Assembly (NCBI GenBank): GCA_965284535.1
Contig: OZ260090.1
Span: 1,577,916 to 1,641,915 of the forward strand
DNA from: Caulobacteraceae bacterium
Lineage (GTDB): Bacteria > Pseudomonadota > Alphaproteobacteria > Caulobacterales > Caulobacteraceae
DNA: 64,000 nt
Direction: 5' to 3'
Shown: piece after piece, positions 50,201-58,511 of the stretch
Layout of the letters: every line of letters begins with the position of its first letter
Position numbering within the stretch: position 1 is the first letter of the stretch
Notes under the pieces: generated by a model
Told to the model about the DNA's origin: nothing
What the model saw: the letters and a program-made list of their open reading frames with translations, nothing else
The model's database searches: none
Position numbers and translations under genes: made by a program

Positions 50201-51207
<1,007 letters not shown>

Positions 51208-51258
51208 GGGGCGGTCTCCGAAGAAGCGGTGTCAGGGTTGGCGCTTCAATGAAGCCGG

Positions 51259-51285
51259 CGGGCGCGGGGATCAACCCCGCGCCCG
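51259..51285. terminator. 11-bp GC hairpin between the S41 peptidase gene and gap
   Basis: cgggcgcgggg-atcaa-ccccgcgcccg. Confidence 0.55.
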
Positions 51286-51345
51286 TAACAAGGCGTGATG
51301 AACTGTAACGCCTTCCCCCCAAGCGGAGCACCGGGGGAGGAATAC

Positions 51346-52686
51346 TCAGTCCGTGCGGCGTGAACGCGGGCCGGGGCCGCCCAGGCCGAATGAATCCATG
51401 ATTGTGACCCGGCCGGCCTCGTCGCGGCTGAACTGCACCCTCCGCGAGGGGTCGCCGACAACGGTGAACAGATCCGGTCCCAGCGCCGACAGCACCACGG
51501 GGGGACGACGACCGCGCATGATCTGCAACTGGTCCCCGGCCACCGAGACAACCTGCTCGCCATAGGTGCCGGCATAGGCCGACAGGTCGCCGGTGGAGGC
51601 GGTCGCGTTCAGGGCCTCCAGAGCCCAGGCAGCGTCGGTCCTGCCGGCGTCTCCGGCAACGATGGCTTCAAGCGCCAGGGTCCGGGCGCGGGTCAGGGCC
51701 TGATCCCATGGCACGGCCACGTCGGGGATGACGCCCGTCCCTTCCCAGTTGCGGCCGGTGTTGGGATTGCGCGGCGAGCCTTGCGAAATGAACACTGCAA
51801 AGCCGCCGCCGACCGGAACCATGCCGCCGGGGTTGGCGGCCCCGCCCGAGGCGTCGCCGACGATGGTCCCCCGCCCCGCGCCCTGAAGCGTGTAGGGGAA
51901 GGCCTCGGCGGCCGAGCCGGTGCGGGCGCTGATCAGGACGTAGACGGGCACGGTCAGCCGCGGGTTCGGATGAAACACCGCCGGGGCCTCGCTCTGCGTC
52001 CCCTGACGGCTGTGGAAGATATTGTAGATCGGGGCATCAGCGGGCGTGAAGGCGCTGGTCAGATAGCCGACCATGGACGGCGCGCCGCCGCCGTTGTCGC
52101 GCAGGTCGAAGATCACCGCGTCCGTCTCGGCGACGAATTCGAGGGCGGCGTCGGCGGCCCGGCGGGCCGGGTCGTCGGGATTGTCGAAATCGATATTCGA
52201 GAACTGGCGCAGGTCGATGTAGCCGATATTGCCCGGCAGGATCTCGACCTTGCGGAAGCCGAAATGGCCGCGGACCTCGATGGGGTTCACCAGTCTCGGG
52301 CCCTGACCGCCGCCCGGAGTCCCGGCGGGGGCGGGGCCTCGCACGACGCGAACCGGCGGCGGGCCGGCCGGTGCGTTTGGATCGAAGGCGACGTTGAAGT
52401 GGGCGTCCAGCGGTCGCAGACGACGGCTTAACGTCGCGGCCAGGTCGCGTCCGTCGGTGAGGCCGTCGAAGGCCCCCGCCGCACCTTCGGCTTCAAGATC
52501 CGTCGCGATGCGTGCGCCCATGGCTGGATCGAAATACAGGTCGCGAATGCGGGCGGCGACGGCGGACACGGTCTGGCGTGGTGTCGGCCTTTCGGAAATA
52601 CGTCCGGCGGTTTCGGCCGACGGTGAGGTCTGGGCCAGGGCCGGCGTGGCCGCCAACAGGACGGTGGCGAGGATCAAGGCGCGCAT
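51346..52686 (-). CDS. S41 family peptidase (IRBP/tricorn-like), secreted
   Basis: Signal peptide, DAHF, NIGYIDL, IFDLRDNGGG, TGSAAEAF, WEGTGVIPD. Confidence 0.92.
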   Translation of the reverse strand: MRALILATVLLAATPALAQTSPSAETAGRISERPTPRQTVSAVAARIRDLYFDPAMGARIATDLEAEGAAGAFDGLTDGRDLAATLSRRLRPLDAHFNVAFDPNAPAGPPPVRVVRGPAPAGTPGGGQGPRLVNPIEVRGHFGFRKVEILPGNIGYIDLRQFSNIDFDNPDDPARRAADAALEFVAETDAVIFDLRDNGGGAPSMVGYLTSAFTPADAPIYNIFHSRQGTQSEAPAVFHPNPRLTVPVYVLISARTGSAAEAFPYTLQGAGRGTIVGDASGGAANPGGMVPVGGGFAVFISQGSPRNPNTGRNWEGTGVIPDVAVPWDQALTRARTLALEAIVAGDAGRTDAAWALEALNATASTGDLSAYAGTYGEQVVSVAGDQLQIMRGRRPPVVLSALGPDLFTVVGDPSRRVQFSRDEAGRVTIMDSFGLGGPGPRSRRTD

Positions 52687-54299
52687 CAGGGCGTCTCCGT
52701 CTTCGATGAAAGGGGCAGTTCGAGCCGGGCCAGAAGCCCGCCTTCGCTCCGGTTGGTCAGGATGACGTCACCGCCGAAGGCGCGGGCCGCCTGCCGTGCG
52801 ACGGTCAGGCCGAGGCCCGCCCCGCCGGTCTCACGGCTGCGCGAGCGCTCGGCGCGATGGAAGGGTTCGAACACGGCCTCGAGCTCGTCTTCGGGGAGCC
52901 CCGGCCCATCGTCCTCGATCATCACTAACGCGCGACCGTCCCGGGCAAAGGCCTTCACCCGAGCCGCGCCGCTGTATTTGACGGCATTGGCGATCAGATT
53001 GCCAAGCGCCCGGCGCAGGGCAGCCGGATCCGCGTTGACCGTCAGTTCGCCGCCGCCGTCGAAGGTCACGGCCTCGCCCGTCTCGGAAAATCCGTGCGCG
53101 CAGTCGGAGGCCAGGGCGTCCAGATCGAGGATTTCGCGCCGGTCCGGGGTCGCCTCGCCGCGCACATAGGCCATGGCCTGGGCGATCAGGGCGTCCATCT
53201 CCTCGATGTCGGCGGCCATGCGATCGCGGACCGCCTCGGGGACCTGTTCGGCCCGGAAGCGAAGACGGGTCAGGGGGGTGCGCAGGTCGTGGGCGATGGC
53301 GGCGACCGTCTGGGTGCGCCGGCGTATGTGGTCGCGCAGGGACGCCTGCATGTCGTTGAAGGCGTGAATGGCCGTTCGCACCTCGCTGGGTCCGGATGGT
53401 GCCAAGGGCTCCGCCTCGGGGTTGGCCCCCAGCCGTTCCGCCGCCTCGGCGAAGACCCGGATGGGTCGTGTCAGTCGTCGCGCCATCCACCAGACCAGCG
53501 GTGCCAGCAGCAGCATGGAGATGCCCAGCGCCAGCAGCACCCGCTGTTGCCAGGGCGACAACAGTCCGTGCGGCGGTTCAACCGTGGCCCATCGTCCGTC
53601 CGGCTGGCGCACCGCGGCGGAAAAGGGCGCGAAGGTCAGCCTGTCAGCCCGAATGGTGAATCGTTGCGTCTCGTGATCGACAGCGAACGCCCCGCCTTCC
53701 GGGCTGCCCTGTTCGGGATGATGGATGTTCATTTCGGCCGTGACCTCGGTACCGTTCCGGATGACGACCGTCTCGCTGGATTGCCAGCGGACCCCCAGTT
53801 CCGGTGTCGGTTCACCGGGAGGATGGGGCGGAAGGGGAGGAGCGGGCGGCGGCGGCGGGCGCGGAATGGCTTGATCCGGCACCGCATCGGGCCGGACGAA
53901 GACGAAATCGACGCGCTCGCGAGGACCGGAGCCGTCGCCCGGTCCGGAGAGCTGGTGCCGGCGCGAGCCATGGTCGACCGTGACCCGGACGGTATCCATT
54001 TCGACCCCGAGCCTTTGGGCCAGCCCGGCGCGGATCGCCATGGCCATCGGGTCGATCTGGATGTCGGGCTCCGGCCCGGGCGGGCGGTCCACGATGCGAC
54101 GGCGCAGGGCGCGGCCATCCGCCGTTTCCGCGGGTTCGCCCTTCAGGGCGGCGGCCGCGGTCTCGATACTGAAGCCCGCCGGCCCGGGTTCGGGAGCCAG
54201 GATCACGACGCCGAACGCCACCGCCTGGGACATGACCACCGCCAGCGCCGCGAGCGCCGCGACCTGGACCAGGACGGGAAAGGATGACGGCCGCCTCAT
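52686..54299 (-). CDS. Membrane sensor histidine kinase (HAMP-HisKA-HATPase)
   Basis: Two TM helices around a Pro-rich periplasmic loop; AIAHDLRTPL; NAVKYS; GGAGLGL. Confidence 0.93.
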   Translation of the reverse strand: MRRPSSFPVLVQVAALAALAVVMSQAVAFGVVILAPEPGPAGFSIETAAAALKGEPAETADGRALRRRIVDRPPGPEPDIQIDPMAMAIRAGLAQRLGVEMDTVRVTVDHGSRRHQLSGPGDGSGPRERVDFVFVRPDAVPDQAIPRPPPPPAPPLPPHPPGEPTPELGVRWQSSETVVIRNGTEVTAEMNIHHPEQGSPEGGAFAVDHETQRFTIRADRLTFAPFSAAVRQPDGRWATVEPPHGLLSPWQQRVLLALGISMLLLAPLVWWMARRLTRPIRVFAEAAERLGANPEAEPLAPSGPSEVRTAIHAFNDMQASLRDHIRRRTQTVAAIAHDLRTPLTRLRFRAEQVPEAVRDRMAADIEEMDALIAQAMAYVRGEATPDRREILDLDALASDCAHGFSETGEAVTFDGGGELTVNADPAALRRALGNLIANAVKYSGAARVKAFARDGRALVMIEDDGPGLPEDELEAVFEPFHRAERSRSRETGGAGLGLTVARQAARAFGGDVILTNRSEGGLLARLELPLSSKTETP

Positions 54300-55027
54300 G
54301 CCGCGCCCCGGGTCGCACCTTTGTGGCGCTCGACCCTGACGTCGAACATATAGCCCTCGCCACGCAGGGTCTGGATCATCTCCAGTCCCGATCCGTCGTC
54401 GAGCTTCTTTCTCAGGCGGCTGATCTGCACGTCCATGGCGCGGTCGAAGACGTCGGCGTCGGCACCCCGGGCCTGCTCCAGCAACTGGTCGCGAGTCAGG
54501 ACACGGCCGGGCCGTTCGGCGAAGGCGCGCAACAGGGCGAACTCTCCGGCGGACAGGGCGACATCACGACCATCCGGCCGGGTCAGTTCGCGACGCAGCA
54601 GGTCCAGCCGCCATCCCGCGAACCCCAGGGCAGGTCCTTCGGCGATGGATTCCTCGCGCGGGCGGCGCAGGACGGCCCGGACGCGGGCCAGAAGTTCGCG
54701 GGGATTGCAGGGTTTGGCCAGATAGTCGTCGGCCCCCAGCTCCAGTCCGATGATCCGGTCTGTGTCCTCGCCCATCGCCGACAGCATGACGATCGGTGGC
54801 CCCTTGCCGGCCAGACGGCGGCACACCGACAGCCCGTCCTCGCCCGGCATCATCAGATCCAGCACGATCAGGTCCGGCGTGTGCTGAGCCACGGCGCGAT
54901 CCATTTCTGCGGCGGAGGCGGCACCGACGGCTTCATAGCCATGCTGGACCAGATAGTCGCACAGCACCTCGCGAATGCCGGGGTCATCATCGACGACGAG
55001 AATACGGGGGGCGGCGTCGGCTGACAT
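54296..55027 (-). CDS. OmpR-family response regulator
   Basis: ILVVDDD, IVLDLMMPGEDG, GADDYLAKP, DRAMDVQISRLRKKL, TLRGEGY. Confidence 0.95.
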   Translation of the reverse strand: MSADAAPRILVVDDDPGIREVLCDYLVQHGYEAVGAASAAEMDRAVAQHTPDLIVLDLMMPGEDGLSVCRRLAGKGPPIVMLSAMGEDTDRIIGLELGADDYLAKPCNPRELLARVRAVLRRPREESIAEGPALGFAGWRLDLLRRELTRPDGRDVALSAGEFALLRAFAERPGRVLTRDQLLEQARGADADVFDRAMDVQISRLRKKLDDGSGLEMIQTLRGEGYMFDVRVERHKGATRGAA

Positions 55028-55157
55028 GGGGGCCATTGTGGCGAACCTCACGCTCGCCGTCATTTCAGCATTGAAACATTCGGCACCGGTGCTGAAATAC
55101 TGTCGCAAGCGCGGCGTGGTCGAACAAGGTCCGCACAACAACGGGAGCCCACCGCTC

Positions 55158-55964
55158 ATGCTGACCCTGATCGCCCTCTCCGCCGCCCTGATGCAACAGG
55201 CTCCGACGCCGCCCGTTCCGCCGACGCCACCCGCCCGGTTTATGTTTATGAGCGCCGAAGGCCCCGGGGGCCTGGACAAGGACGGCGACGGCCAGATCAC
55301 GCGTGAAGAGTTTGCCGCGCCGATGAATGACCATTTCGCCCGCATGGACACGAACAGCGACGGCCGCCTGTCGACCGATGAGATGTCGGCCGGCCACGGC
55401 GCGATGGCCGGGGGCGACCATGATGTCCGGATCATTCGCCGTTCCGATGGTCCCGGTGGACCCGGTGTTCGGCATTTTGAACTGAGCCGGAACGGAGGGG
55501 GCGGCGAACACGAGGTGCGGGTCATCGCCGGACCCGGCGGTCACGGCGGGCCGGGTGTCCACCATTTCGAATTTCGTCGTGAAGGCAGCGAAACGGCCGG
55601 ATCGGGTGAAGGCCGGACCATGGTCTTCATCGGTGGCGAACCCGGTGCCGGTGGCGAACGCGAGATCATCATTCATGGCGAGTCGGATGGTGCTCCTGTC
55701 GAATGGATGAGTGCCCGTGGCGAGGGCGGCCCCGCCGAGCGGATCGAGATCCGGCGCATCGGCGGTCCGGGCGGCGAGAATGATCTGGACACCGACAACG
55801 ACGGCAAGATCAGCGAGGCCGAGTTCAGTGCCCCGTTGCGAGAGGCCTTCGCCCGGATGGATGCCGACCACTCCGGCTTCATCGAGCCCGGCGAGCATGG
55901 TGCCGGCCACGGTTCCGAGGTCTTCGTCCACCGTATCGAGACGCGGTCGGGTGACGCGGACTGA
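55158..55964 (+). CDS. Secreted EF-hand protein (four EF-hand loops around a Gly/His-rich linker)
   Basis: DKDGDGQITREE, DTNSDGRLSTDE, DTDNDGKISEAE, DADHSGFIEPGE. Confidence 0.88.
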   Translation: MLTLIALSAALMQQAPTPPVPPTPPARFMFMSAEGPGGLDKDGDGQITREEFAAPMNDHFARMDTNSDGRLSTDEMSAGHGAMAGGDHDVRIIRRSDGPGGPGVRHFELSRNGGGGEHEVRVIAGPGGHGGPGVHHFEFRREGSETAGSGEGRTMVFIGGEPGAGGEREIIIHGESDGAPVEWMSARGEGGPAERIEIRRIGGPGGENDLDTDNDGKISEAEFSAPLREAFARMDADHSGFIEPGEHGAGHGSEVFVHRIETRSGDAD

Positions 55965-56018
55965 TCTGTCCGCGACTTCGTGATTTGAAAGGCGGTCCCG
56001 GCGCCCTCTAATGGAGTC

Positions 56019-57305
56019 ATGAGTTTCCGCCGTCTTCTGACGATCGTGACCGCTTCGACGGCGATGGGCCTTGCGCTCATCGCCGTTCCGGCGTTTGCGG
56101 CCGATCCCGCACTGGTGGACGTCGCACCGGCCGTGGCACCCGCCCCGCCCGGCCCCGAGAGGGCGCGGATGAACCAGCGGGTCTTCGACCGGGTCTGGAA
56201 CGAGGTTCGCAGCCAATACTATGACCCGGGCCTGCATGGGGTGGACTGGAACGCCGCGCGCCGGACCTGGCGGCCCAGGGCGCTGAGCGCTCCGGACGAC
56301 CGGACGCTTTACCGCGCCCTGGGCGAGATGCTCGACCTTCTGGACGACGACCACGCCGGGGCGGCACCACCCGCCGTCGCGCGCCGTCAGGATACGCTGC
56401 GCCAGCGCCGGCCCGCGATCGGCGTGTCGCTACGGCCCGAACCGTCCGGCGACGCCTGGCTGATCGAAAGGGTCAGGGCGGGATCGCCCGCCGCCGATGC
56501 CGGAGTGGCCGTGGGCTGGCGGCTCGTCACCAGCGAGGAAGCCCTCTGGACGCCGGAGCAGGATATTTCCGAGGGCCTGCCCGTGACCCTTTCTCTGGTT
56601 GATGGCGAAGGTATTTCCCGACCTCTGACCCTGACCCCGCGCATGATGGATCCGACCCCGGCCTTCGTCGCCGACCGCTCGCGACCGGGCGTGCTGGTGC
56701 TGACCGTCGACGGCTTCGAACCAGGGCTGGGCCGCTGGATGGGCGAGCAGCTGGAGAATCTGCCGTCCGAGATCGATGTCGTCATCGATCTACGGGGCAA
56801 TTCCGGCGGGCGGCTGGCCGAGGCCGATGCGGTGCTCAGCTGTTTTTTGCCGCGCGACCGGCTGTGGGCGGCGCGTACCGGCCGGTCGGGTCGGCGCGTG
56901 GAACTCAGGACGGCCGGCGGCTGCGGCGATCTGGCCCGACCCGTCGACAATGAGGTCGCCGTCCTCGTCGACGCCAACAGCCGAAGCGCCGCCGAACTGA
57001 CACCCGCGGCTCTCCAGGAGGCCCGCCGCGCGGTGGTGGTCGGGGGACCCACGGCGGGCTCGGTGCTGATCTCCCAGGAGACGAGTCTCCCAGACGGCGG
57101 CCGACTGAACCTCAGCCGGTCTGACTTCATCACCTCGGGCGGCGTGCGGCTCGAAAAGCGCGGCGTGACGCCGGACATCGTCGCCCCGCTGACACTGGAA
57201 GACCGGCGGGCCGGTCGCGATCCGGGGCTGGATGCCGCCCTGGCCGCCCTGGCGGGGCCGGCCGTGGAGCCGGCGATGGCGATTCAGGTCGCGCCGGCGC
57301 TCTAG
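56019..57305 (+). CDS. S41 family peptidase with PDZ-like domain, secreted
   Basis: DDDHAG, RVRAGSPAADAG, IDLRGNSGG, SRSAAEL, LEKRGVTPD. Confidence 0.9.
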   Translation: MSFRRLLTIVTASTAMGLALIAVPAFAADPALVDVAPAVAPAPPGPERARMNQRVFDRVWNEVRSQYYDPGLHGVDWNAARRTWRPRALSAPDDRTLYRALGEMLDLLDDDHAGAAPPAVARRQDTLRQRRPAIGVSLRPEPSGDAWLIERVRAGSPAADAGVAVGWRLVTSEEALWTPEQDISEGLPVTLSLVDGEGISRPLTLTPRMMDPTPAFVADRSRPGVLVLTVDGFEPGLGRWMGEQLENLPSEIDVVIDLRGNSGGRLAEADAVLSCFLPRDRLWAARTGRSGRRVELRTAGGCGDLARPVDNEVAVLVDANSRSAAELTPAALQEARRAVVVGGPTAGSVLISQETSLPDGGRLNLSRSDFITSGGVRLEKRGVTPDIVAPLTLEDRRAGRDPGLDAALAALAGPAVEPAMAIQVAPAL

Positions 57306-57317
57306 CCGTCCTTCGCT

Positions 57318-58511
57318 TCAGCCGGGGACCACACGAACCTTCGACGCCGCCTCGCGGGCCCGCTCGCGCGCCTGATCCACGGTTTCGCCGCGTGCGGTGG
57401 CCACGCCCATGCGGCGGCTGACATAGCTCTCGGGCTTGCCGAACAGGCGCAGGTCGGCGGTGGGCACGGACAGGGCCTCGGCCACCCCTTCGAAGGCGAC
57501 CCCGACGGCGTCCATGCCGCCGTAGATGACCGCGCTGGCACCGATGTCGCGCTGGCTGACATCGACCGGCAGGCCGAGGATGGCCCGGGCGTGCAGGGCG
57601 AACTCACTCATCGTCTGGGTGGCCAGGGTGACCAGCCCGGTGTCATGCGGGCGCGGCGAGACCTCCGAGAACCAGACCTGGTCGCCCTTCACGAACAGCT
57701 CGACCCCGAAGACGCCGAGACCGCCCAGCGCGTCAGTGACCTTTCGGGCGATATCCTGCGACGCGGCCAAGGCGGCGGCAGACATGGCCTGCGGCTGCCA
57801 GCTCTCGACATAGTCGCCCTTGACCTGACGGTGGCCGATGGGGGCGCAGAAGTCGGTGCGGACGGTGCCGTCCTGAATCGAGCGCACGGTCAGCAGGGTG
57901 ATTTCGAAGTCGAAATCGATCCGGCCCTCGACGATCACCGTCGCAGTCTCGACCCGTCCCCCGGACTGGGCGTAGGCCCAGGCGTTCGCGGCGTCCTCGA
58001 TGGCGTCGATCATCGACTGGCCCTTCCCGGACGAGGACATCACCGGCTTGATGAAGACCGGCAGGCCGATCCGATGCGCGGCCCCGGCCAGTTCGGCGGC
58101 CGATCTGGCGAAGGCATAGGGGCTGGTCGGCAGGCCCAGATCCTCGGCCGCCAGCCGGCGGATGCCCTCGCGGTTCATGGTCAGCTGGGTCGCCCGCGCG
58201 GTGGGGATGACCGTCGCCAGTCCGGCCGCCTCGATCTGCGCCAGCACATCGGTGGCGATGGCCTCGATCTCCGGCACGATGATGTGCGGGGCCTCGGCCA
58301 TGATGACGCCGTTCAGCACCTGCGGATCGGTCATCGGGATGACGTGGCTGCGGTGCGCAACCTGCATGGCCGGGGCGTTGGGATAGCGGTCGACGGCGAT
58401 GACCTCCGCGCCCAGTCGCTGCAGTTCGATGGCGACTTCCTTGCCCAGTTCGCCGGCGCCCAGAAGCATGACGCGGACAGCGGTGTCGGAGAGGGGAGTG
58501 CCGAGTTTCAT
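57318..58511 (-). CDS. purT: Formate-dependent phosphoribosylglycinamide formyltransferase
   Basis: [55 protein letters not shown]. Confidence 0.97.

Follow-up and report, generated by a model that had tools for sequence, protein, structure and literature searches.

Five neighboring genes on a Brevundimonas chromosome, encoding an OmpR-family response regulator, an EnvZ-type sensor histidine kinase, an EF-hand protein and two proteins of peptidase family S41 (S41a and S41b), raise the question of which of them belong together as a unit. They lie at positions 51346 to 57305 of the 64-kb stretch of DNA that was analyzed (the window); the chromosome has ~69% G+C, and its nearest named relative is B. 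denitrificans. A first-pass annotation of this DNA had read all five as one envelope-stress module. From the comparisons below we consider it probable, though well short of assured, that the locus is a copy of the EnvZ1-OmpR1 two-component system paired with a divergently encoded, probably periplasmic protein with four EF-hands, and that the S41 genes are add-ons. The features concerned are these:

54296..55036, minus strand: OmpR-family response regulator, putatively of the OmpR1 type (Pfam Response_reg 98.5 bits, Trans_reg_C 84.1 bits)
52686..54299, minus strand: EnvZ-type sensor histidine kinase, putative EnvZ1 paralog (Pfam HAMP, HisKA, HATPase_c)
55059..55099, no strand: conserved cis-element in the divergent promoter (intergenic conservation)
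55158..55964, plus strand: EF-hand protein, 268 aa (Pfam EF-hand_1 64.7 bits, EF-hand_5 64.3 bits)
56019..57305, plus strand: S41b, secreted Tricorn_C1/PDZ-like/S41 protein (Pfam Peptidase_S41 98.3 bits, Tricorn_C1 38.6 bits)
51346..52686, minus strand: S41a, secreted IRBP-like S41-family protein (Pfam Peptidase_S41 79.9 bits)

Gene content and order agree with the first-pass annotation, as judged from open reading frame (ORF) coordinates and from Pfam and NCBIfam models: the regulator, kinase and S41a genes follow one another on the minus strand, and the EF-hand gene and then the S41b gene run on the plus strand. The translational coupling that it had proposed for the three minus-strand genes was borne out as well, since the regulator stop and the kinase start share 4 nt (ATGA) and the kinase stop and the S41a start share 1 nt. 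The regulator could start at the ATG at 55036 (MAPMSADAAPRILVVDDD) or at the ATG at 55027. The locus is flanked by gap and pgk on one side and by purT and tkt on the other.

We compared the locus in 12 congeners and in 46 species-level Brevundimonas records, counting a locus as evaluable where its contig allows judgement. The EF-hand gene has the regulator and kinase genes beside it in each of the 12 congeners and, among the 46 records, in every locus that was evaluable; wherever a Brevundimonas locus has the EF-hand gene, its regulator ortholog is 71-94% identical. An EF-hand ortholog is missing from half of the sampled congeners; in seven congeners without one the best regulator match is 40-43% identical, and four further ones gave intermediate regulator matches (48-63% identity). 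The weakness of the regulator matches where the EF-hand ortholog is missing implies that the sensor genes and the EF-hand gene were gained or lost together.

The pairing extends beyond the genus. Homologs of the kinase periplasmic domain were found in 23 of 27 genera of Caulobacteraceae, and in ten of 16 loci from other genera of the family the gene that runs divergently from the regulator gene encodes an EF-hand protein with two to four loops; in L130 (Caulobacter), the eleventh locus with an EF-hand gene, that gene is co-directional and belongs to a different subfamily, and gap/tkt synteny is retained in two of the 16 (L131 and L132). None of the 16 carries an S41 gene, and no third conserved gene was found among them, the recurrent neighbors being LigD and an amino-acid permease. 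In Caulobacter, CC_1180/CCNA_01238, which is listed as a signal-peptide EF-hand protein (PMC13171946), adjoins the EnvZ1-OmpR1 genes CC1181-CC1182 by locus-tag numbering, and a kinase-sensor search for the CC_1180 locus returned only Brevundimonas among the best 120 matches. What is conserved is thus the regulator-kinase pair plus the EF-hand gene, in essence a Caulobacteraceae trait that recurs sporadically elsewhere. Outside the family, an EF-loop ORF stands independently beside an OmpR-like regulator and kinase in L088 (a Sphingomonas metagenome-assembled genome, MAG), L151 and L163.

The two halves of this unit also share a promoter element. Both arms of the inverted repeat ATTTCAGCA/TGCTGAAAT (55062-55070 and 55090-55098) match exactly and have no further exact copy within the window, and TGAAAC (55072-55077) and TGAAAT (55093-55098) lie 21 bp apart; the repeat and the spacing are as the first-pass annotation had said. 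The most conserved or invariant intergenic columns among 13 Brevundimonas sequences read GTCATTTCA-N4-TGAAACA-N14-TGAAAYA, so that of the 9-nt arms the relatives conserve ATTTCA/TGAAAY only, and the better-conserved element is the short palindrome ATTTCA (55062-55067)-N4-TGAAACA (55072-55078), with a third box, TGAAATA (55093-55099), 21 bp downstream. The palindrome ATTTCA-N4-TGAAAC(A) stands 5' of the regulator gene in loci of other genera that have an EF-hand gene (L117, L118, L120, L122, L123 and L128) and also in loci that have none (L127 and L125). An RNA-hairpin reading of the 9-nt repeat was rejected because relatives conserve 6 nt of each arm and no compensatory changes were found, and it is further disfavored because the cross-genus conservation falls on the shorter palindrome. 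Arms that are conserved in sequence without co-variation point to a protein-binding site rather than an RNA hairpin. TGAAACA matches the core TG(A/T)AACA of the E. coli OmpR consensus (TTTTACTTTTTG(A/T)AACATAT, cited in PMC5559549), and the element at 55059-55099 is probably where the response regulator binds. The shared promoter box, the adjacency in every evaluable Brevundimonas locus, the joint absences and the recurrence in other genera together uphold the part of the first-pass annotation that joined the two-component system to the divergent EF-hand gene.

Genome-wide, TTTCA-N4-TGAAA occurs at three sites in 2.9 Mb, against 0.17 expected. Besides the locus itself, one site (G000:C1:628656) is located ~175 nt upstream of the gene for a TonB-dependent receptor (minus strand, 626154-628481), with another GTGAAAC after it and a tryptophan-halogenase-like gene divergent from the receptor gene; the other (G000:C1:1799440) lies between lgt-like and YbjN-like genes. 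Either may be a further target of the regulator. A regulon prediction from the palindrome was dropped, three genomic sites being too few to define one. In several other genera (L120, L121, L123 and L118) a second conserved word, AAACCG(T/G)TGCAA(C/T)A, occurs between the palindrome and the EF-hand gene; it could be a promoter element, or it could correspond to the third TGAAAYA box seen in Brevundimonas.

The regulator and kinase have the attributes of the EnvZ/OmpR family: a receiver followed by an OmpR/PhoB winged helix in the regulator, a transmembrane (TM)-periplasmic-TM-HAMP-HisKA-HATPase_c kinase (TM1 ~aa 7-34, then the periplasmic domain, TM2, HAMP, HisKA and HATPase), and the regulator gene first in the operon. 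The best NCBIfam models are OmpR for the regulator (243.9 bits against a cut-off of 331) and EnvZ for the kinase (196 bits against a cut-off of 415). Because these E. coli equivalog models score best and yet stay below their cut-offs, the two proteins are members of the family and not equivalogs of the E. coli proteins. Skerker et al. 2005 (PMC1233412) and Nocedal & Laub (bioRxiv 10.1101/2022.02.11.480122) describe two EnvZ/OmpR paralogs in alphaproteobacteria, which in Caulobacter are EnvZ1-OmpR1 (CC1181-CC1182) and EnvZ2-OmpR2 (CC2932-CC2931); in the latter study, EnvZ1 has Arg27, Glu/Asp29, and Phe26 in Caulobacteraceae, and EnvZ2 has Gln/Glu/Ser27 and Ala29. The H-box of the kinase here reads HDLRTPLTRLRFRAEQ, and F-R-A-E comes after it (TRLR-F-R-A-E). 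The sole other close paralog in this genome (G000:C1:1801628-1803659; kinase 39% and regulator 42% identical) has a kinase (C1:1801628-1802398) whose H-box helix continues as TRLR-L-E-L-A. With DHp positions 26-29 placed on the H-box helix by inference, F-R-A-E here, set against the EnvZ2 signature L-E-L-A in the second paralog, marks the sensor pair as the EnvZ1-OmpR1 ortholog. From these signatures and the family-wide synteny, we infer that the pair is the Brevundimonas EnvZ1-OmpR1, orthologous to CC1181-CC1182.

The periplasmic domain of the kinase consists of two conserved pieces (aa 36-110 and 215-250) separated by a variable, indel-rich and Pro-rich insert (aa 111-215 in the conservation profile), so the Pro-rich loop seen by the first-pass annotation is present. 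In the AlphaFold2 (AF2) model the conserved pieces have a predicted local distance difference test score (pLDDT) of 86-97 and the insert one below 50. A fold search of the sensor model against the PDB gave no match at E <= 0.001, and neither an acidic cluster nor an obvious docking motif was found among the invariant residues of the sensor.

The EF-hand protein has an N-terminal hydrophobic leader, an EF-hand pair at aa 38-80, a Gly/Pro-rich linker at aa 84-206 and a second pair at aa 209-246. All four loops (DKDGDGQITREE, DTNSDGRLSTDE, DTDNDGKISEAE and DADHSGFIEPGE) are canonical: they come in pairs, are 12 residues long, and have Gly at position 6 and ligands at 1, 3, 5 and 12. In 33 orthologs these five positions are either invariant or conserved to at least 90%. 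The four EF-hands and the linker named by the first-pass annotation are therefore well founded, with metal binding predicted from the loops. Both pairs have pLDDT 82-92 in the AF2 model, and the value is below 50 in the ~120-aa linker, which is variable, the orthologs ranging from 192 to 324 aa in total length. The resemblance that had been noted between this linker and the kinase loop holds for composition and fails for sequence: homology of linker and kinase insert was rejected by BLASTP (E 0.84), composition alone being common to both. Across loci the lengths of the EF-hand protein and the kinase correlate weakly (Spearman 0.46, p 0.018, n 26, phylogeny uncorrected). Membership in two known EF-hand families was likewise rejected with NCBIfam models (lanmodulin, LanM, 36.9 bits against a cut-off of 135; XopAW 39.5 against 120). 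LanM loops typically carry Pro at position 2, and the loops here have none at that position.

A few relatives have an EF-hand gene that looks damaged beside sensor genes that look intact (L068/L024, which is B. abyssalis TAR-001; L058/L019; and L064). In B. abyssalis the coding sequence is distributed over two reading frames, one MAG has an in-frame TGA in it, and L064 has an apparent deletion that brings the kinase gene's 3' end together with the 3' portion of the EF-hand gene; either real decay or errors of assembly could explain these cases. Three more EF-hand ORFs are present in the genome studied here, all elsewhere (G000:C1:1902508-1902741, 420282-420344 and 267889-268152).

A number of observations weigh against the pairing as we propose it. 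The first concerns export. The first ~20 residues of the Brevundimonas EF-hand protein (MLTLIALSA.L.Q.PP.PP; window 55158-55225) are among its most conserved parts and form a short, hydrophobic leader without Lys or Arg, that is, without a basic n-region, which is unusual for a signal peptide; the orthologs of other genera have classical K-containing signal peptides. The 'secreted' of the first-pass annotation is thus backed by the hydrophobic leader and weakened by the missing basic residue, so export is likely, and the protein is probably exported or periplasmic. Second, of 28 OmpR-like loci outside Caulobacteraceae two have an EF-loop ORF no more than 1.5 kb away, which argues that pairing with an EF-hand protein is not a general property of EnvZ/OmpR. 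Third, a search with the L130 EF-hand ORF returned a different EF-hand subfamily, whose members in two complete genomes adjoin a nucleoside transporter and not a sensor; that the pairing seems to exist in Caulobacter too follows from locus-tag adjacency and family-wide synteny. Fourth, the whole gap-to-tkt region is syntenic within Brevundimonas, which makes adjacency within the genus weak evidence by itself. Fifth, OmpR-family regulators usually bind direct repeats, and since the best-conserved element is palindromic, which is unusual for this family, another dimeric regulator could bind it. Last, the tight S41a-kinase coupling and the short, conserved spacing between the EF-hand gene and S41b suggest co-expression, and a functional tie of the S41 genes to the rest is possible in this lineage.

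The best-surviving rival holds that the EF-hand protein is a mere target of OmpR1, such as a buffer of periplasmic cations or a protein of the envelope, that plays no part in sensing and whose gene lies where it does by ordinary adjacency of a regulator and its target. The promoter suits it, as the OmpR-type boxes precede the EF-hand start codon by ~60-95 nt, a distance normal for an activator; the same type of box stands 5' of the regulator gene in the loci without an EF-hand gene; and the similar palindrome 5' of the TonB-dependent receptor gene fits an ordinary OmpR-like envelope regulon. The lack of an acidic cluster or an obvious docking motif among the conserved kinase sensor residues points the same way. 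However, joint presence and absence together with adjacency across most genera of the family make a tighter association than is usual for a regulon member, and the lengths of the two proteins co-vary, if weakly and with phylogeny uncorrected. We regard this alternative as unlikely on balance, and as one to be taken seriously.

The other rivals concern the S41 genes, and here the wider sample of Brevundimonas is informative. S41b adjoins the EF-hand gene in ~34 of 42 evaluable loci and is missing from two clades (L044/L049/L063 and L050/L052/L054). S41a, which in a first sample (0/11) had looked unique to this genome, a notion rejected by the wider one, directly follows the kinase gene in nine of 37 evaluable loci as orthologs 65-81% identical, with gaps of ~2 nt (L030), 5 nt (L059) and 18 nt (L042) in relatives. 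All five genes occur together in eight of 36 evaluable loci. On the maximum-likelihood kinase plus regulator tree the distribution of S41a needs at least six changes, and since the orthologs are at the same position and 65-81% identical, the pattern looks like repeated loss with the sensor genes and the EF-hand gene kept. The gap-purT interval (equivalent to window 51200-57320) is a variable spot among Brevundimonas species: congeners without an EF-hand ortholog have there a CstA-type carbon-starvation transporter alone (L111 and L113), S41b (62% identity) with CstA (L107 and L109), or an S41a-like gene (52% identity) beside gap (L108), in the latter three without sensor or EF-hand gene. Because S41 genes occur at the same spot without the sensor, and the sensor/EF-hand pair occurs without S41 genes, the S41 genes are probably not part of the core. 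In several congeners (extra S41 paralogs in L015, L021, L025, L030, L035, L047 and L056) an S41a paralog (37-41% identical) lies 1-2 kb past tkt, and an S41b paralog (31-38%) often follows S41b, implying that S41-family genes cluster in this region of Brevundimonas.

The proteins themselves belong to family S41, as the first-pass annotation had it, and both keep the nucleophilic Ser; the catalytic Lys in the T-x-G-K-G motif, which completes the Ser-Lys dyad of classical S41 peptidases, is missing from both. The best solved relatives of S41a are RBP3/IRBP modules: aa 36-340, including the N-terminal subdomain, align with all four RBP3 modules (9frx, E 6.5e-68) and also with single IRBP modules (7jti and 1j7x), which places it in the IRBP-like subfamily. 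Its nucleophile Ser258 (TGSAAE) is conserved in relatives, and the position of the catalytic Lys is Ala (VGDASGGAAN), as in IRBP, in a hand alignment to the CtpA motif that is backed by the IRBP alignment. S41a also has a signal peptide and a C-terminal extension or extra domain of ~100 aa. Its catalytic activity is doubtful, and it is probably not a peptidase of the classical type.

In S41b the nucleophile Ser323 (SRSAAE) is conserved in relatives, and the alignment puts Ser in place of the catalytic Lys (PTAGSVL where CtpA has KTFGKGS). The nisin-resistance protein NSR uses a His/Ser pair, and S41b matches NSR weakly (PDB 4y68, E 1.3e-4). At least 97% of 50 homologs, including paralogs 30-35% identical, keep D110, H112, S321, S323 and E326, and the Tricorn_C1 score of 38.6 bits exceeds the cut-off of 24. 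With Ser323 and His112 conserved and the Lys replaced by Ser, a Ser/His mechanism is plausible, and S41b is likely to be a Ser/His-type peptidase. Its gene starts 54 nt after the EF-hand gene, with similar spacing (~55-70 nt) in relatives and no terminator-like site found between the two, so the two genes are probably co-transcribed. On the minus strand, a further feature lies beyond S41a:

51258..51282, no strand: strong hairpin rich in GC, GGGCGCGGGG-atcaa-CCCCGCGCCC, in the interval from S41a to gap (read from sequence)

The transcript of the regulator, kinase and S41a genes probably ends at this hairpin. For want of a T-run it received no terminator score in the consensus scan, and a weaker second hairpin nearby (~51316-51338) lacks a T-run too.

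Against this background we can weigh the circuit of the first-pass annotation, taken here as one in which S41b and/or S41a would cleave the EF-hand linker or the kinase insert in a Ca2+-gated manner and so reset the kinase, as DegP clears CpxP. The gene arrangement lends it some appeal: S41a is translationally coupled to the kinase gene here and abuts or nearly abuts it in relatives, S41b follows the EF-hand gene at a conserved short distance with no terminator found between them, and several loci have a second S41b paralog at the same place. So do the proteins, given the conserved Ser323/His112 and the PDZ-like segment of S41b and the long, low-confidence and probably disordered segments that AF2 predicts in both proposed substrates. 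However, the set of five is found in eight of the 36 loci; S41a was gained or lost at least six times while the sensor and EF-hand genes stayed; the two clades without S41b keep similar EF-hand linkers; the S41b (62%) and S41a-like (52%) genes persist at the same spot without the sensor and EF-hand genes; none of the 16 sensor loci of other genera has an adjoining S41 gene; and S41a, without the catalytic Lys, is nearest to non-catalytic IRBP modules. The first-pass annotation had itself named as refuting its module the finding that the genes do not co-occur elsewhere, and for the five genes as a set this is how the counts fall. Its claim that the S41 genes are integral likewise finds no support, given the repeated changes of S41a, the loss of S41b from two clades, its persistence without the sensor, and the other genera. 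Proteolytic gating by the S41 proteins is unsupported, and we consider the circuit as a whole improbable. That all five are functionally unrelated chance neighbors in a variable gap-purT hot spot, as the differing cargo of congeners (CstA alone, S41b with CstA, an S41a-like gene) and the flanking housekeeping genes syntenic throughout the genus might suggest, is already disfavored for the sensor/EF-hand pair and barely credible overall, because the pair is found again in other genera within different chromosomal settings and shares a conserved cis-element, and because start/stop overlaps show operon organization.

Building on the gene identities, the operon geometry, the co-occurrence, and the conservation of the cis-element and the Ca2+ ligands, we propose the following model for the EnvZ1-OmpR1/EF-hand pairing. 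Phosphorylated OmpR1 would bind the ATTTCA-N4-TGAAACA/TGAAAYA boxes between the regulator and EF-hand genes and from these shared boxes control both its own operon and the EF-hand gene, and in most Brevundimonas the co-transcribed S41b would be controlled together with the latter. The EF-hand protein would bind Ca2+ or a similar cation in the periplasm as an obligate partner of the sensor, and would most likely be a regulated target that feeds back on the small periplasmic domain of the kinase in the manner of CpxP. The Gly/Pro linker and the Pro-rich kinase insert would be fast-evolving, probably disordered spacers. S41b, as a Ser/His-type PDZ protease, and S41a, as an IRBP-like and possibly non-catalytic protein, would be Brevundimonas-specific passengers under the same transcriptional control, not needed by the core. 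A link between Ca2+ and the EF-hand-sensor pair is plausible on this sequence evidence and apparently undescribed. A bolder version is conceivable, in which EnvZ1-OmpR1, a system both old and widespread in alphaproteobacteria, serves in the Caulobacter family for periplasmic Ca2+/cation sensing with a secreted EF-hand co-receptor, the metal-loaded pairs dock on the kinase periplasmic domain, the disordered spacers co-vary in length and S41b trims the co-receptor to reset it in Brevundimonas; we think it distinctly unlikely, though slightly less so than the proteolytic circuit.

For twenty years CC1181-CC1182 have been a model for phosphotransfer specificity and paralog insulation, with input and targets unreported in the literature searched. 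Skerker et al. 2005 (PMC1233412) class the pair as 'of unknown function', and in that literature we found no reported signal, regulon or partner and no discussion of its EF-hand neighbor. The EF-hand partnership and the candidate operator yield a testable hypothesis, namely a cation or Ca2+ input, autoregulation and an EF-hand output, and neither of the 'S41 peptidases' should be taken for a member of the circuit.

The locus can be set beside several known systems. Like EnvZ1-OmpR1 of Caulobacter crescentus (CC1181-CC1182), it has an operon in which an EnvZ-type kinase gene comes after an OmpR-type regulator gene, and the genome holds both of the signatures described for Caulobacteraceae EnvZ1 (F-R-A-E) and for EnvZ2 (L-E-L-A). 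S41a resembles the IRBP/RBP3 modules (PDB 9frx, 7jti and 1j7x) over ~300 aligned residues, with GSAAE in common and the Lys missing, but differs from them by its signal peptide and the extra C-terminal domain of ~100 aa. S41b resembles NSR and the tricorn core in its Tricorn_C1 domain, the invariant His, the invariant Ser in SxSAAE and the missing Lys, but is far smaller than tricorn, and its dyad is deduced from conservation. Like CpxP-CpxRA of Escherichia coli, DbfQ-DbfRS of Vibrio cholerae and MzrA-EnvZ, the locus appears to encode a small accessory protein of the periplasm beside a two-component system; cpxP is divergent as the EF-hand gene is here. The regulator of the system itself probably controls the accessory gene, and the kinase may receive feedback. 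The accessory here is an EF-hand protein, whereas CpxP belongs to the LTXXQ/CpxP family: Pfam and NCBIfam returned only EF-hand families, and no CpxP/Spy LTXXQ match, for the divergent gene. CpxP is cleared by DegP, of family S1, whereas this locus carries S41 proteins. Exported multi-EF-hand proteins with a part in Ca2+-dependent regulation, as proposed here, include EfhP (PA4107) of Pseudomonas aeruginosa, for which no pairing with a kinase is known. Another is CaBP (CCNA_02838) of Caulobacter vibrioides, which pairs with an extracytoplasmic function sigma factor and not with a two-component system (PMC13171946). Both EfhP and CaBP lack a long Gly/Pro linker between two EF-hand pairs, whereas the EF-hand protein of this Brevundimonas locus has one.

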